From Dictyostelium discoideum (taxonomy: Eukaryota), in assembly GCA_000004695.1 (NCBI GenBank), contig CM000154.2:2976001-3040000 (forward strand): a stretch of DNA of 64,000 bases. The letters are read 5' to 3'. Below the pieces are notes generated by a model. That model ran no database searches, was not told the DNA's origin, and saw only the letters and a program-made list of their open reading frames with translations. This document shows, in pieces, positions 56,158-64,000 of this stretch; the stretch's first letter is position 1; every line of letters starts with the position of its first letter. A program made the translations under genes and the position numbers.

Positions 56158-57702
56158 ATGGAAAAATTATTTTTTAAAGTTTGGAAAAATAATATTTTAA
56201 GGAAATTAATATTTTCATATATTATAGAAATTAATAAAAGAAAAATTGGTAGAATTTTAAAATATTATGAAATTAAATCAGCAGATATTTTATGTGATAA
56301 TGGATATTGGTTATTATTAAAAGATATAGTTCAACAGAGAGAGATTAGAAGAAAACAAAAAGAAGAGGGTAAATCATGTTATCCAGGCCCATCAATAGAG
56401 ATAAAGATAACAGAATCATCATTAATTAAAATTTGTAAAGGTGTTTCAAATATTGATTTATTTAAATCACTTTATTATCAATTAGAAAAGGAGTTTAAAT
56501 ATCATGATTTCATGTTTATAGATTATGCAGCCGATAGCGGTTCATTGGAGGTGGTGAAATTCCTTCATGAAAAGGGCCACAGTGCGTCATTCGTTGCCTT
56601 GGATAACGCAAGTTGGAGAGGGCATTTCGATATAATTAAATTCCTAATCCACAACAGACATGAGCAATGCTCGAAAGGAGCCATCGACCAGGCCGCTGCC
56701 GAGGGTAATTTACCAATAGTGAAATATCTATCAAAGTACACACAATCTGGGTGTTCAAAGTCTGCTATTAATCTAGCATGCAAAAACGGGCATTTAGAAA
56801 TGGTGAAATACCTATTCGAGAATAGAAAAGAGGGTGCGTCAGCCAAGGCATTGGATTATTGCTGCGAGTTTGGTAGATTTGAAATATTTAAATATCTATT
56901 TGAAAACGATGTTTTGTCATTAAACAATATGGGCACTACCTCATTCAGCAGTCAAAGTGAGTCACAAAATAACAATGGTCATAATAAACAGTATATCACA
57001 GTTGACGGCTTGAAATTGGCTGTCAAAAGTGGTAATTTGCAATTGGTTAAATATATGATTGATAATAAAATTTTCATTAGATCAGATTGTAACATTGCCT
57101 ATCAACAAAGTCTATCCCAAAGAAATTGTGAAATCATTAAATTATTAGAACAATTCTCTAGTGAAAGAATTACAACAGTTGAATTCATAATGTATAATAT
57201 AAAAGCAATTGAAAATAAATTATTAAATAATATAATTTACTTATTTGACAAGTATCCTAAACAAGTACTATCTTCAACTCAATATAAAGAATTAATTTAT
57301 AAATCTGTACAATCTTCTGATTTCCAAATATTTCAATTCATTTTCCAAAATGCAATTAAAAAATATCCAACTTTTTTACAACAAACTTTAAAGAATTCCT
57401 CTTCTTCCTCTTCCTCTTCCTCCTCATCTTCTTCAAAAGGTGAAAAAAATCATTTAAATGAAAAATATTTATTTATGTTATCTATAAGATCTTTAAATTT
57501 AGAAATTGTTCAATTTATTTATAATCAATATCATATTCCTTCAAATTCAATTAATATTCAATTATTATTATCTTTTTCAATTTATAATTTTAATATACCA
57601 ATAACTGATTTTTTAATTTCAAACTTTTTTATAAATAATTTTTATTTAATTCAAAATGATCATCAAGATGATCATGATTTAGATAGTATTAATAATATGT
57701 AT

Positions 57703-57766
<64 letters not shown>

Positions 57767-58225
57767 GTTATAAAAATAGTAAATTAAATTTAGATAATTA
57801 TTTATTATCACCAATAATAAGATCAAATTCAAAAATTTATAATTATTTATTAAATTGTAAAAATAATATTTTACCACAATTACTATTACAACAAATTCAA
57901 CAACCACAACCACAACCACAACCACAATCACAACCTCAATTATCAAATAATAATAATAATAATAATACTAAAAAACAAAGTGTATTATTTATTAATAATG
58001 AAAATTATAAATTATTGTATAAATCAAATATTTCATCAATTTATGATGAAATTCATATATCAAACCCAAAATATTTTAAAATATTTTTAACCCATTTAAC
58101 TGATAGTATGATGTCGGAATTTGATGATTCTTTTAATCACATCTCAAGAGGAAATCATATTAGATTTGTTGATGCTTTTTCAGGTGATCATCATCTTTTA
58201 TATGGTTTTAATAATAATAATAAAT

Positions 58226-58230
<5 letters not shown>
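56158..58230 (+). CDS. Ankyrin-repeat protein (690 aa) whose N-terminal F-W-K motif relates it to the 32595/37032 family
   Basis: The N-terminus is MEKLFFKVWKNNILRKLIFSYII. There are at least 5 ankyrin repeats (GSLEVVKFLHEKGH, GHFDIIKFLIHNRH, GNLPIVKYLSKY, GHLEMVKYLFENRK, GNLQLVKYMIDNK). It also has poly-Ser, poly-Asn and a (PQ)n stretch. The repeat-encoding block 56540-57130 is about 42% GC, against about 22% elsewhere in the gene. Confidence 0.65.
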
Positions 58231-58497: not shown

Positions 58498-58532
<35 letters not shown>

Positions 58533-58657: not shown

Positions 58658-59131
58658 ATGGCAACAAGTGAAGATGATAAAGATAACAGTTATAAAAAAA
58701 TTAAATGTACAATTCATCCAAATAAAAAAATAAAACTTTTATGTTCAGATTGCAATTTAATGCCATGTTGTATTGAATGTATTTTAGATGGTGAACATAT
58801 TTCACATAAATATCGAAAGTTAGAATCAGTAGATTTTTCATTAATTAATAGTAAATTTAAAAATGATATATGTCCAAAAATAAAAGAAAAAATTGAAAAT
58901 AATAAAATAATATTAAAAGAATCTTATAATAAATTCCATGAAATTCAATCACAATTTTATAATAATAATAATTTAATAAAAAATGAAATTGATAAAATTC
59001 GAGAAACCATTTCAAATATTGAAACTGATTTTCAAAATGAATTAAAAGAAACCTTTGATAATAATAAAATAATAAATACAAAAATAACATCATCAATAAA
59101 TCAAGATAATGAATTACTCACAAACATTGAA

Positions 59132-59195
<64 letters not shown>

Positions 59196-59431
59196 GTTCA
59201 AATTGTATTGATGCAAATGAAACCATTAAACGATATCAACAATTATTAATATTAATAAATAATAATAAAAAAAATTCAAATAAATTAAAAGAATATAATA
59301 ATCAAGTGATTACATTTGAAAATTCAACACTTGATGAAATTAAAAATTATTTAAAATTAATATATTCTTTTAAAAATAATGATAATAATGATAATAAAAG
59401 TAATAATGAATTTGATAATGATGGAGATTAA
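58658..59431 (+). CDS. B-box zinc finger plus coiled-coil protein (257 aa), paralog 1 of the B-box/FNIP cluster, with no FNIP repeats
   Basis: CTIHPNKKIKLLCSDCNLMPCCIECILDGEHISH is a B-box-type Cys/His finger. It is followed by a coiled-coil-like region with a poly-Asn tract, and it ends with a stop at 59431. Confidence 0.6.
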
Positions 59432-59689
59432 TATATGTATATATATGTTAATTATTTTCATTGTGTTTTCCTCAATTCAAAAATAAATAAAAGTAAAAAT
59501 CAGATTGTAACAAAGACACCATAAATAGTAATTTTTTATTTTATTTTTTGTTTTTTTTTATTTTTTTTATTTTTCTTTTTTTTTTTTTATTTCCATGCAT
59601 TTTGGGTCACTTTTTTTATTTTTACACACATTTCGCTTTTTTTTTAATTTCTCTTTTTTTTTTTTTTTTTAGTATTAAGTTTATTACCA

Positions 59690-60449
59690 ATGACAACAAG
59701 TAATAATAATAATAATAACAATAATAATAATAAAAATAAAATTCATAAAAATATTAAATGTACAATACATTCAAATAAAAAAATAAAACTTTTATGTTTA
59801 GATTGTAATTTAATGCCATGTTGTATTGACTGTATTGCAGATGGTGAACATAATACACATAAATATAGAAAGTTAGAATCAAAAGATCTTTCATTAATTG
59901 ATAATAATTTAAAAAATAATGTATATCCAAAAATAAAAGAAACAATTGAAAATAATAAAATAATATTAAAAGAATCAAATAAAAAATTCAATGAAATTCA
60001 ATCACAATTTTATAATAATAATAATTTTATAAAAAATGAAATTAATAAAATTCAAAATATAATTTCAAATTTTAAAAGTGATATTGAAAAACAATCAAAA
60101 GAAATATATAATAATAATATAATAATAAATACAACAATAACATCATCAATAAAACAAGATAATCAAATACTCACAAACATTGAAAATAATAATAATGAAT
60201 CCAACCCAAATGATATAAATGAAATAATTAAACAATTTCAACAATCATTAATAATATTAAATAACAACAATTCAAATAAATTAAAAGAATACGATTGTAA
60301 AATGGTTCAATTCGATCATTCAACAATTGATCTTATTAAAAATTATTTAAAATTAATTTATTCTATAAAAGATAATTGTAATAATCAATTTTATTACGAT
60401 GAAGATTTTCAATTTATATGTGAACCAGAAGGTAATAATGAGCCGGTCG

Positions 60450-60535
<86 letters not shown>

Positions 60536-62059
60536 CTGCAACAACAACAACAACAACCAACACCAATTTCACCAACAACAACAACAACAACAGCAACAAC
60601 AACAACAACAACAGCAACAGCAACTACAACATCAACATCACCAAATAATAAAAAAAGAAAGAATCCAGATTCTGATGATTATGATGGTAGTGATGGTTAT
60701 GATGGTCATGATTCTGATGATGGTCATGATTCTGATGATGACTCTGATGATGATGATAATAATAATGATAAAAATGATGACAATAATAATAATAATAATA
60801 AAAATAAAAATGGACCGAATAAAAAATATAGACCACGTGTATTAAGTAAAATAACAAGTAATGTTAAAACGTTGCATATACATTGTTTAAGACAAGAATT
60901 AGAGATTGGTTGTATACCTAATACTATTGAAACCATCTTTTTAAAAGGTGGATACAATCAAAGATTACTCACTGGTATAATACCAGAAGGTGTTAAAAAG
61001 TTACAATTTGGTAGAATGAATCAAGAATTAATTATTGGATCAATTCCTAAATCAGTGACGTGTGTAGCTTTAAAAGGTGGATTCAGTCAAAAATTAACAC
61101 CAGGTTTAATACCAGAAACTGTACTAGACTTTAAAATTGGTGATACCAATCAAGTTTTAATGGTTGGATCAATTCCAAATAGTGTAAAGAGACTCTATCT
61201 ATTCCGTAAATTCAACCGAAAATTAAGACCTGGTATAATTCCAAAAGGTGTTACAGAGTTGTATTTAGGTAATAAGAATGATGTATTAAAGGTTGGTTCA
61301 ATTCCAAATACTGTAAAGACTATCTATTTAGAGAAGGATTTCAACCAAAAGTTAATACCTGGCATATTACCAAACGATGGTTTTAAAGAACTACATATTG
61401 GTCCCATAGAATTAAAAGTATTAGAGATTGGTTCAATTCCTAAAACTGTAAAGAGGGTCTATTTGAATAGTAAATATCCACAAAAATTTAAACCAGGTAT
61501 ATTACCAGAAGGTGTTCAAGAATTACATTTAAGCGGAAAGAATCAACCCTTAATGATTGGTTCCATTCCAAAAACTCTAAAGAGTATTTATTTGGAAAAA
61601 GGATTCAAACAAGCATTACCACCTGGTATAATAACTGAAGGTGTAGAAAACCTATATTTACGTTCTATAGGTAAGGTTCAAATTGGTTCAATTCCTAATA
61701 CTGTAACAAGTGTCCATATATTGAAAGAGTTTAATCAAACATTAAAACCTGGTGTTTTACCAATAAGCGTTAAACATTTACATCTATATGATTTCAAATC
61801 AACATTAACTATTCATTCAATTCCTAATACTGTGGATAATGTATATTTAAATGATGGATTCAGTCAAAAAATAATGCCTGGTATATTACCAATAGGTGTT
61901 AAATCTTTACATTTAGGTGATATAAAAAAAGAAATAACCATCGAATCAATCCCCTTCACTTTAGAGACTATAAATATATATAGAGGTTTTAAACATCCAA
62001 TTGAACCATTCATTTCAAAAAATATAAAAATTGTCAATCACTTAAAGAGACTTAACTAA
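59690..62059 (+). CDS. B-box zinc finger plus FNIP-repeat protein (789 aa), paralog 2
   Basis: It has the same B-box (CTIHSNKKIKLLCLDCNLMPCCIDCIADGEHNTH). It then has polyQ (CAA)n, a Thr/Ala-rich stretch and an Asp-rich stretch. After that come 17 or more ~22-aa FNIP repeats (..IGSIPKSVTCVALKGGFSQKLTPGLIPE.., ..VGSIPNTVKTIYLEKDFNQKLIPGILP..). Confidence 0.7.
60462..60540. repeat. (CAA)n polyglutamine-coding microsatellite
   Basis: About 26 CAA units. Confidence 0.8.
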
Positions 62060-62085
62060 AATATTATTTTTAAACTATTTTTTTT

Positions 62086-62261
62086 ATTTTATACTACAAC
62101 TACAACATCAATACCAACATCACCAAATAATAAAAAGAGAAAGAATCCAGATTCTGACGATTATGATGGTCATGATTCTGATCATGATCATGATCAGGAT
62201 TATGATAGTCATGATTCTGATCATGATCACGATTCTGATGATGATTCTGATGATGATGATG

Positions 62262-62357
<96 letters not shown>

Positions 62358-63125
62358 GTGAAACCATCTTTTTAAAAGGTGGATACAATAAAAGATTACT
62401 GATACCAGAGGGTGCTAAAAAGTTACAATTTAATAGAATGAGTTGGGAATTAATTATTGGATCAATTCCTAAATCAGTGACGTGTGTAGCTTTAAAAGGT
62501 GGATTCAGTCAAAAATTAACACCAGGTCTAATTCCAGAAACTGTATTAGACTTTAAAATTGGTGATACCAATCAAGTTTTAATGGTTGGATCAATTCCAA
62601 ATAGTGTAAAGAGACTCTATCTATTCCGTAAATTCAACCGAAAATTAAGACCTGGTATAATTCCAAAAGGTGTTACAGAGTTGTATTTAGGTAATAAGAA
62701 TGATGTATTAAAGGTTGGTTCAATTCCAAATACTGTAAATACTATCTATTTAAAGGGGAATTTCAATCAAAAGTTAATACCTGGCATATTACCAAACGAT
62801 GGTTTCAAAGAACTACATATTGGTCCCATAGAATTAAAAGTATTAGAGATTGGTTCAATTCCTAAAACTGTAAAGAGTGTATTTTAATAGTAGAAATATA
62901 CAAAAAATTAAGCCAGGTATATTACCAATAGGTGTTAAATCATTACATTTAGGTGACATAAAACAAGAAATACCCATCGAATCAATCCCCTTCACTTTAG
63001 AGACTATAAATATATATATATAGGTTTTAAACATCCAATTGAACCATTCATTTCAAAAAATATAAAAATAGTTAATCACTTAAAGAGACTTAACTAAAAT
63101 ATTATTTATAAACTATTTTTTTTAT
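62086..63125 (+). pseudogene. Truncated tandem duplicate of the 3' ~1.5 kb of the 59690..62059 B-box/FNIP gene
   Basis: The copy starts immediately after the parent 3' flank. 62086-62260 corresponds to parent ~60590-60790 (TTTPTSPNNKKRKNPDSDDYDG..). 62340-62885 is near-identical to parent ~60930-61470 (ORF 62438..62887 is a frameshifted FNIP block). 62890-63110 is near-identical to parent ~61870-62090, including the stop and 3' UTR. It carries internal deletions and a new (AAT)n at 62262-62355. It has no start codon and no B-box. Confidence 0.6.
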
Positions 63126-63129
63126 TTCT

Positions 63130-63185
<56 letters not shown>

Positions 63186-63378
63186 GATACATCTATTTAA
63201 TTAAGTAAAAAATATGTTTTTGTTTTAAAAAAAAATAAAAAAAATAAAAAGTAATGTTTTGAAAATATCTCGACATCATTTTGTTTTTCTACTTTTTGGC
63301 ACAAAACAAGTAAAATTTTTTTTTTTATCAGTTTTTTTTTCTTTATTTTTTAAGTCTTCCATTTTATTTTATTTTATT

Positions 63379-63414
<36 letters not shown>

Positions 63415-63502
63415 ATATACTGGATATTGATCCAACAAAATTTTTTAAAAATATTTATTTTTTTTTTTTTTTTTTTTTTGATAAACTATAATTCCAAAAA
63501 CA

Positions 63503-64000
63503 ATGATATCCAACAATAATGCAATAAATAAAATTGATAATAATAAAAAGTGTACACTTCACCCAAACAAAGATATAATATTCTTTTGTTTAGATTGTAA
63601 ATTAATGCCATGTTGTACTATATGTATATCAAGTAAAGGTGAACATCATGCTCATAGAATTGATCCATTAGAATCTAGTTCAAATATTCTTTCATTAATG
63701 AATAGTTTTAAAGATGATGTACATCAAAAAGTAATAGAAAGAATTGAAACTAATGAAATAATTTTAAAACAATCAAGTGATAAATATAATGAAATTCAAT
63801 CACAATTTGATAATAATAATAATTCATTAAAAAAAGAAATTAAAAAAATTCATGATATCATTTCAATCATTGAATTGGATATTAAAAAACAATTAGAAAC
63901 AGCCTTTGGAAATAATACATTAATAAATTCAATGATAAATTCTTCAATCAATAATGATAATCAAATACTTTCAACAATAATTAATAATGAAAATGAAAAT
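63503..64000 (+). CDS. B-box zinc finger protein, paralog 3, 3'-truncated by the window end
   Basis: The ATG at 63503 opens [51 protein letters not shown]... This is the same B-box and coiled-coil layout as paralogs 1 and 2. The frame is open to the end of the window. Confidence 0.6.

Follow-up and report, generated by a model that had tools for sequence, protein, structure and literature searches.

The B-box and FNIP-repeat orthogroup OG5_126643 has been reported to count 241 members in Dictyostelium discoideum, 381 in A. subglobosum, 206 in P. pallidum, and 55 in D. fasciculatum (PMC4334915), and a genome preprint on D. giganteum reports that FNIP repeats rank first in abundance among its Pfam domain classes (419 proteins; 10.64898/2026.03.01.708701). 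The only studied protein of this kind is AreA (DDB_G0279871), which binds Atg101 and lowers autophagic flux, and its HHpred comparison matched TRIM proteins in the B-box only (PMC4554924). Only one TRIM, which is TRIM37-like, has been counted in D. discoideum (PMC5758549, PMC3503706). In Megavirus, FNIP repeats are fused to an N-terminal adaptor domain, an F-box, and in Polysphondylium they are joined to kinases; these fusions point to a role in selecting targets (PMC9525666). Here, we analyzed a cluster of B-box genes at the end of a 64-kb stretch of D. discoideum DNA (assembly GCA_000004695.1, contig CM000154.2, positions 2,976,001 to 3,040,000 of the forward strand), hereafter called the window, in whose positions all coordinates are given unless another locus is named. 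The cluster consists of gene A, a short gene without FNIP repeats; gene B, with a long FNIP-repeat array; a decayed copy designated psiC; and gene D, which is cut by the window end (Table 1).

The window was compared with the same locus in two other assemblies, GCA_054859385.1 ("D. discoideum", ACTFIR tags; locus L002) and GCA_054859205.1 ("D. cf. discoideum", ACTFIY tags; locus L003). Both were collinear with the window (USP, RasGEF, and ankyrin-repeat genes, followed by the array) at a nucleotide identity of ~90-95%, and the product of the ankyrin-repeat gene directly upstream of the array showed 99% amino acid identity to ACTFIR_002073 and ACTFIY_001625. The order of genes in the window was ankyrin, A, B, psiC, and D. 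The corresponding order in L002 was ankyrin, A (309 aa, without FNIP repeats and with the same stop), B (898 aa), C (748 aa, full length), and D (TAA at codon 124), and that in L003 was ankyrin, A (299 aa), B (814 aa), no C, and D (a 272-aa open reading frame (ORF) followed by retroelement-like ORFs). The gene B orthologs in L002 and L003 were 94% identical to window gene B. The base composition of the window (~20% GC) and its long poly-Asn and poly-Gln runs fit Dictyostelium, and its genome belongs to the D. discoideum complex.

The locus is likely a four-member birth-and-death array (A, B, C, and D) of the D. discoideum complex and a part of the dictyostelid B-box and FNIP family. In this history, gene A is an old paralog without FNIP repeats whose ORF was kept in three genomes, and gene B together with its upstream spacer was duplicated into gene C after the L003 lineage split off. 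Gene C stayed intact in L002; in the window lineage, it lost its promoter and head through a deletion of ~1.15 kb and acquired frameshifts. Gene D represents a separate subfamily, which carries a nonsense codon in L002 and appears to be truncated and flanked by retroelement ORFs in L003. A preliminary description of the window had considered the locus to be currently expanding and diversifying by local duplication. This was correct in that the duplication of B into C is fairly recent (found in L002 and the window, not in L003) and that the copy content differs in the three genomes; however, the pattern is one of birth and death and not simply of expansion.

The same description had recognized a truncated copy (62086-63125) and had taken it for a product of ongoing expansion. 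The copy is real; it was located here at 62095-63127, corresponds to the gene B tail, and starts ~35 nt 3' of the gene B stop codon. An origin in ongoing expansion was not borne out by a five-way alignment of the tails of window gene B, the fragment, L002 B, L002 C, and L003 B. Seventeen sites were common only to the fragment and L002 gene C, two only to the fragment and window gene B, and three only to L002 B and L002 C; thus, the separation of B and C is older than the split between the lineages of the window and L002, and a little conversion between paralogs came later. A 9-nt deletion and the amino acid states NKRLL, RMS, NTVNTIYL, QEIP, and YIG were likewise shared by the fragment and L002 gene C, and the ratio of nonsynonymous to synonymous divergence (dN/dS, calculated throughout with NG86) between them was 0.41. 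The fragment, psiC, is the decayed remnant of an old, full-length gene, C, which was found intact in L002 but not in L003.

The remains of gene C in psiC comprise a linker remnant (62095-62261), an expanded (AAT)32 run (62262-62357), an in-frame FNIP remnant (62357-62884), and the C-terminal end with its stop codon (63082-63084), followed by a tail resembling a 3' untranslated region (UTR) up to 63127. A 149-aa ORF inside psiC still matched FNIP in three stretches (Pfam, E 3e-27). Compared with L002, ~1.15 kb (L002 ~16320 to 17471) is missing from the 3'UTR of B to the linker of C, and this loss took the spacer and promoter of C, its start codon, B-box, coiled coil, and poly-Gln. The remnant has also lost 61 nt, in place of which it carries (AAT)32, and 2 nt whose deletion leads to the stops at 62885-62893. 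A further deletion removed 384 nt (three double units of 129 nt each, less 3 nt), and 2 nt were inserted near 63010.

The earlier view, of a locus in current expansion with the fragment as a newly made partial duplicate of the gene B tail and the short gene as the outcome of recent domain loss, could draw on the adjacency of the fragment to gene B, on their identity of 95-96% in the aligned FNIP blocks, and on the nucleotide identity of 78-90% between gene A and the head of gene B (over ~700 nt, blastn). We consider it improbable, as the shared sites, the 9-nt deletion, and several amino acid states connect the fragment only to L002 gene C, the fragment bears five disabling lesions, and the orthologs of gene A form a clade of their own with a divergence from B that exceeds that between the genomes (see below). 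A processed (retrotransposed), 5'-truncated cDNA copy of gene B was also considered because an A50 run starts 6 nt after the end of the 3'UTR homology and the copy lacks its 5' part. Such a retrocopy is extremely unlikely: the position of psiC matches that of the full-length, promoter-bearing gene C in L002, and the sequence past the A50 run can be aligned with the L003 sequence 3' of gene B, where a shorter A-run sits at the same place. The A50 run is accordingly an expansion of the ancestral A-run in the gene B 3' flank and not a retrocopy tail, and no target-site duplications were seen flanking 62095-63183.

The duplication that gave rise to gene C most likely post-dates the split of the L003 lineage and included the upstream spacer. 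Window B, L002 B, and L002 C grouped to the exclusion of L003 B in a neighbor-joining (NJ) tree, with weak support, and a few sites at the array showed paralog-to-paralog gene conversion. The spacer between genes A and B is T-rich and contains the conserved motifs TTAATTATTTTCATTGTGTTTT, CAGATTGTAACAAAGACACCATAAATAG, and CACACATTTCGCTTTTTTTTT. In addition to the L002 spacer upstream of B, it aligned partly with the L002 spacer upstream of C, and thus, the spacer was co-duplicated with gene B.

The same spacer bears on whether gene A is a gene at all, as it could be a 5' exon spliced to gene B, which the preliminary description had named as refuting its view if shown by cDNA, or part of a read-through transcript of both. 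A stop-free interval from GT (59400) to AG (59672), 273 nt in length, would indeed join gene A to gene B in frame in the window. The candidate donor, however, reads GTAATA, the usual Dictyostelium donor being GTAAGT. The AG acceptor is missing in both L002 and L003, and the GT...AG interval is thus taken as a coincidence. The L003 spacer holds ~190 nt of extra sequence that is not T-rich, the motifs upstream of B were co-duplicated with B, A and B are separate called genes in both other assemblies, and the joined product would bear two B-box/coiled-coil heads. A spliced or read-through product is therefore very unlikely, and A and B are treated here as separate genes.

Gene A encodes a type-2 B-box (B-box2; aa 14-55, nt 58697-58822), a long helix (aa 57-162, nt 58826-59143), an (AAT)21 poly-Asn run (nt 59132-59195), and two short helices before the stop codon, and Pfam gave no match to FNIP repeats in it. 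Current domain loss had been proposed for this short form, which the comparison did not bear out. The ORF of gene A was intact in all three genomes, with an identical stop position in two of them, and the A orthologs of the window, L002, and L003 formed a clade with 100% bootstrap in the NJ tree. Synonymous divergence (dS) between A and B was 0.12-0.16, exceeding that between the genomes at gene A (0.03-0.07); because of this excess and the fully supported A clade, the FNIP-less form is taken as old. On the three-genome tree, gene A accumulated ~65 substitutions without a stop codon, and every indel preserved the frame; simulation gave a probability of ~0.01-0.03 for the open frame to survive under neutrality. 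Several other short B-box/coiled-coil proteins without FNIP repeats were found among the dictyostelid representatives. Gene A thus has the features of a conserved, old short paralog without FNIP repeats, and no current domain loss is seen.

The substitution rates leave some room for gene A being a non-functional relic whose frame stayed open by chance, since dN/dS among the A orthologs was not significantly below 1 and that of A versus B was close to or above 1 (values below). Nevertheless, the ~65 substitutions free of stop codons, the frame-preserving indels, and the recurrence of FNIP-less B-box/coiled-coil proteins among dictyostelid relatives argue against a relic, which we regard as unlikely; relative to this alternative, gene A is likely a maintained short paralog.

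Gene B encodes both a B-box and FNIP repeats in one polypeptide, a combination that gene A does not have. Its parts are a B-box2 (59747-59875), a coiled-coil helix (~59876-60199), a second helical segment, a poly-Gln run of (CAA)n (60450-60637), a Thr-rich, acidic, and Asn-rich linker (60638-60840), and an FNIP array (60854-62029) of nine double units of 43 residues, which corresponds to ~18-19 leucine-rich repeats (LRRs). Pfam FNIP (PF05725) matched in 11 stretches (E 7e-70). The repeats alternate between a type with x-G-F-x-Q (the FN half of the FGxxFN motif) and a type with F/L-G-x-x-N-Q (the FG half). The FNIP domain matched the giant-virus protein Crov588 (6NYR) with a phmmer E of 1.1e-58, and its AlphaFold2 model (predicted local distance difference test (pLDDT) score 87.9, pTM 0.85) had 19 beta-strands with a period of 21-22 residues. 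In Foldseek, this model matched 6nyr with an E of 1.3e-19 and a TM score of 0.66, followed by TLR8, YopM, and LGR4. The tail of gene B belongs to the FNIP/FGxxFN class of LRRs. The full-length members of the array share this plan, in which an amphipathic helix of ~105 residues comes immediately behind the B-box2 and a low-complexity poly-Gln/Thr/acidic linker leads to the FNIP solenoid.

The giant-virus FGxxFN proteins (Crov588, Crov539, and the Megavirus F-box-FNIP proteins) have the same repeat class with units of 21-22 residues, but the head of gene B is a B-box/coiled coil and not an F-box, and its repeats form an alternating 43-residue double unit with partial motifs. Crov588 with its 25 repeats is a closed circle, whereas the domain of gene B is probably an open arc, judging from its count of ~18-19 repeats. 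As an observation on the 3' side of the gene, the frame remains open for 276 more codons after the gene B stop codon TAA (62057-62059); this open stretch covers the linker of psiC and 3.5 of its FNIP double units and ends at the stop created by the frameshift (62057-62887). This in-frame extension is probably due to chance, which is 1 in 3 for the frame; read-through of the stop codon or a polymorphism of the TAA would lengthen the gene B protein.

Gene D was found to be more distant. The three B-box regions had been expected to align better with each other than with unlinked members of the family, which did not hold for gene D: its nucleotide identity was 90-91% to genes of the DDB_G0289849 cluster (locus L001) and ~73-75% to genes A and B. 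In further nucleotide comparisons, gene D was 90% identical to L001 4994-5498 and 85-91% identical to the DDB_G0289849 cluster genes, and its identity to gene A or B was 71-78% (blastn E 1e-83 to 0). L001 is an array of four + strand members with nearly identical FNIP repeats and a 61-nt intron (GTAAGC...TATAG), which lies between head and tail in D-type genes, and a stand-alone D-type array in another genome (L004) resembled it. The D clade was only moderately supported in the NJ tree, where the three D orthologs grouped with a bootstrap of 83.5% and the node that connects them to the L001 genes had 28%. Gene D is a member of a separate, two-exon subfamily of the DDB_G0289849 type whose closest relatives reside in other tandem arrays. 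Genes A, B, and psiC are local paralogs as previously described, and they formed the A/B/C clade of the tree. L001 itself was tried as the orthologous locus and rejected, as the L001 sequence analyzed had no ankyrin anchor within it, matched only D-type genes (85-91%), and lies at a different contig position.

Several observations were made on D-type genes in these genomes. Gene D is open for at least 166 codons in the window, is damaged in L002 by TAA at codon 124 (19591-19593), and in L003 (17536-21188) has an ORF that ends after 272 codons, followed by retroelement-like ORFs of the reverse-transcriptase type and an inverted FNIP piece (17917-18137). The first L001 member has ~17 double units (1069 aa). 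In L001 (7628-9447 and 12184-13044), one called gene is chimeric, with a duplicate of the 5' end of the next gene downstream (MVITSSTPPSS...) joined to FNIP repeats. The near-identical FNIP repeats within and between the L001 genes suggest a very recent repeat expansion or concerted evolution.

The heads of the three genes agreed largely with the preliminary description, which had reported three consecutive + strand genes, each with an N-terminal B-box. ORFs were found at all three positions, and the Pfam zf-B_box model (PF00643) passed its gathering score of 24.1 bits in gene A (29.9 bits, E 6e-7), gene B (28.6 bits), and gene D (34.7 bits). In the B-box motif quoted for all three, one position is F instead of L in gene D. 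FNIP repeats had been attributed to the middle gene alone; of the three genes, only gene B showed them within the window, but gene D is cut by the window end, and its counterparts in L002, L001, and L004 carry FNIP repeats in a second exon. The ligands C17, H20, C29, C32, C38, C41, H47, and H50 (gene A numbering) of the B-box2 pattern C-x2-H-x7/8-C-x2-C/D-x4/5-C-x2-C-x5-H-x2-H were invariant in an alignment of nine family sequences. Across 74 representatives, seven of these eight zinc-ligand positions were at least 90% conserved, with C32 below this level. These heads contain type-2 B-boxes.

The segment described as coiled-coil-like was modeled by AlphaFold2 in gene A as one 106-residue helix (57-162) that starts one residue past the B-box, with pLDDT scores of 71-75 for the B-box and 85-95 for the helix, followed by a disordered poly-Asn region and two low-confidence helices. 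The helix showed local heptad patterning, with a hydrophobic fraction of 0.75-0.88 at the a/d positions in central windows and shifts of register. The top PDB matches of the head in Foldseek were all TRIM B-box2 or B-box/coiled-coil structures (MID2, TRIM72, KAP1, TRIM5alpha, and MuRF1). The modeled B-box of gene A superposed on MuRF1 and TRIM5alpha with a root-mean-square deviation of 1.9-2.2 Å over 40-41 residues, at an E of only 0.14-0.35 and with a model pLDDT of 71-75. A three-head profile searched with HMMER against 1.84 billion cluster representatives gave 87 matches at E <= 1e-3. A Pfam scan of 74 of the 87 identified B-box in 64, FNIP in 22, RING in 14, TRIM_CC in seven, and PRY/SPRY in three. 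The matches included RING-B-box-TRIM_CC-PRY/SPRY and TRIM-NHL proteins, and in true TRIMs, they ran ~100 residues past the B-box.

No RING model matched in genes A, B, and D, in which only 13-23 residues precede the B-box, and the Pfam TRIM_CC model did not match in these heads. Because the RING is absent, these proteins are not counted as members of the TRIM family, although the head looks TRIM-like. They resemble TRIM/RBCC proteins (TRIM5alpha, TRIM72, TRIM28, and TRIM-NHL) in a B-box2 directly followed by a helix of ~100 residues and in a variable C-terminal binding domain. They differ from them in having no RING or canonical E3 module and in carrying a C-terminal LRR solenoid in place of PRY/SPRY, NHL, or MATH. 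With the dictyostelid B-box and FNIP proteins (AreA and, as the nearest named relative of gene D, DDB_G0289849), they share the N-terminal B-box, the helical region, the FNIP repeats (absent from gene A), and a lineage-dependent expansion. AreA, however, has a DUF4559 domain, for which Pfam gave no match in genes A, B, and D, and genes of the DDB_G0289849 type have an intron where the single-exon genes A and B carry the poly-Gln/acidic linker. The B-box and FNIP family and its dictyostelid expansion have already been published, and the locus is ordinary within this family. The similarity to TRIMs that reaches into the coiled coil, beyond the B-box, is a modest addition.

Fast protein evolution had been proposed for the family, and it was confirmed for the array as a whole: dN/dS of the array genes was 0.2-0.8, which is 10-30 times that of the flanking genes (0.02-0.04). 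The ratio was 0.02-0.03 for the ankyrin-repeat neighbor, 0.04 for the RasGEF-LRR neighbor (a value that leaves out L003), 0.22-0.29 for the whole gene of the B orthologs, 0.56-0.87 for B versus C, 0.58-0.76 for the A orthologs, and 0.95-1.35 for A versus B (confidence interval (CI) 0.6-3.0). Within the B orthologs, the ratio of the FNIP domain was 0.09-0.20. This indicates purifying selection and speaks against a fast-evolving recognition surface, with no sign of diversifying selection on it; the FNIP domain of B, the putative binding domain, is the best-conserved part. When its substitutions were mapped by repeat position, no hotspot was found. Positive selection was considered for A versus B, as the ratio over the first 160 codons was ~1.9, and it was rejected because the full alignable length gave 0.95-1.35 with a CI spanning 1.

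In vertebrates, immune TRIM clusters are typically tandem arrays marked by gene gain, gene loss, and pseudogenes. The array analyzed here could be an innate-immunity-type recognition family under diversifying selection, similar to TRIM5 or nucleotide-binding LRR receptor (NLR) clusters. A TRIM-like head is combined here with an LRR tail, genes were gained, lost, or turned into pseudogenes among close genomes, and dN/dS lies above that of the neighbors; in the coiled coil of A versus B, 34 amino acid changes were counted against one synonymous-only codon, the ratio in the B-box being 0.56. On the other hand, the FNIP domain of gene B, with its low dN/dS, showed few changes that were not clustered by repeat position, and dN was significantly above dS in no comparison. 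Diversifying selection on a recognition family is accordingly a doubtful explanation of this array.

Synonymous divergence between the window and L002 varied along the locus, with a dS of 0.26 in the ankyrin-repeat gene, 0.07 in RasGEF, 0.09 in B, and 0.026 in gene A. The approximately tenfold gap between the ankyrin-repeat gene and gene A could be NG86 noise at 20% GC or could reflect histories of conversion or introgression.

By analogy with TRIMs, the long helix would dimerize and present two FNIP solenoids on flexible linkers as protein-binding modules, and the B-box would mediate further assembly or contact with a partner. Through the helix common to all, the short protein encoded by gene A would associate with the products of B or C and modulate them. 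Extending this analogy, the B-box/coiled-coil/FNIP proteins could be the amoebozoan functional counterpart of the TRIM "receptor-regulators". They would then be dimeric scaffolds without a RING that use their LRR tails to select cargo or partners for the Atg1/Atg101 autophagy machinery or for cell-autonomous defense; their arrays would turn over between close genomes, and FNIP-less types such as gene A would serve as natural dominant-negative partners. We put this forward as a speculation with a small chance of being correct. If it were true, a family counted in hundreds (241 in D. discoideum, PMC4334915) would join the sole recognized Dictyostelium TRIM. AreA touches the autophagy complex that is scaffolded by mammalian TRIMs, and this locus adds little to that lead.

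Several points weigh against the account given here. Regarding the array history, the constraint on gene A consists of ORF retention alone, as the CI of its ortholog dN/dS includes 1; NG86 estimates of dN/dS are crude in a genome of 20% GC; and whether C was lost from or never present in L003 is read from nodes with only 34-47% bootstrap. Regarding the TRIM-like head, the Foldseek E values were weak (0.045-0.5), with sequence matches to TRIMs at E values of 5e-5 to 7e-4, and dimerization, target binding, and the link to autophagy or ubiquitin are inferred only.

The locus nevertheless provides a small and clean example of birth and death, with a duplication that included the promoter spacer, a deletion, a nonsense mutation, and a probable disruption by a retroelement in three close genomes. 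For annotation, 62095-63127 should be entered as a pseudogene whose counterpart in a sister genome is intact, gene A should be treated as a conserved short paralog and not as a fragment, and gene D should be kept apart from genes A and B.

Table 1. Features of the B-box/FNIP array and its upstream neighbor in the window
Feature	Position	Strand	Description
Flanking ankyrin-repeat gene	56158..58230	+	Pfam Ank; outside the B-box/FNIP family; synteny anchor and selection control
Gene A (g1)	58658..59431	+	ORF, 257 aa, B-box2 and long helix, without FNIP
A-B spacer, upstream region of gene B	59432..59689	.	Aligns with the L002 spacer upstream of B
Gene B (g2)	59690..62059	+	ORF, 789 aa, B-box2, helix, and FNIP array
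Pseudogene psiC	62095..63127	+	5'-truncated, frameshifted remnant of full-length gene C
A50 run in the psiC 3' flank	63134..63183	.	TRF
Gene D (g3)	63503..64000	+	First 166 codons, B-box2 (nt 63539-63670) and coiled coil; cut by the window end

Outside the array, the 64-kb window had no additional B-box or FNIP copies, and no tRNA genes were found in it. Positions 1-56000 appear to contain ordinary chromosomal genes, which encode an EF-Tu-like GTPase, RRN3, an LRR protein, NFACT, a PI3-kinase, an FMO-like monooxygenase, a USP deubiquitinase, and a RasGEF-LRR protein. The protein of the ankyrin-repeat gene had close matches only in the ACTFIR and ACTFIY assemblies; the next match was in D. purpureum (48%), and no AX4 protein was among the matches, so that this part of the locus may be absent, unannotated, or divergent in the reference strain. 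Exact look-up of 12 window proteins and of the called A, B, and C proteins of L002 (12429-18894) and L003 (12482-16278) in a collection of 15 billion proteins retrieved none of them, although the neighbors ACTFIR_002073 and _002077 were present. The array region contains very long simple repeats, namely T32 (58500-58531), (CAA)62 poly-Gln (60450-60637), a perfect (AAT)32 (62262-62357), and the A50 run, as well as an imperfect T-rich tract of ~98 nt (73% T) at 63316-63413. The lengths of the simple repeats at the locus differed greatly among the window, L002, and L003, and the poly-Asn runs of gene A shifted its length from 257 to 309 aa.

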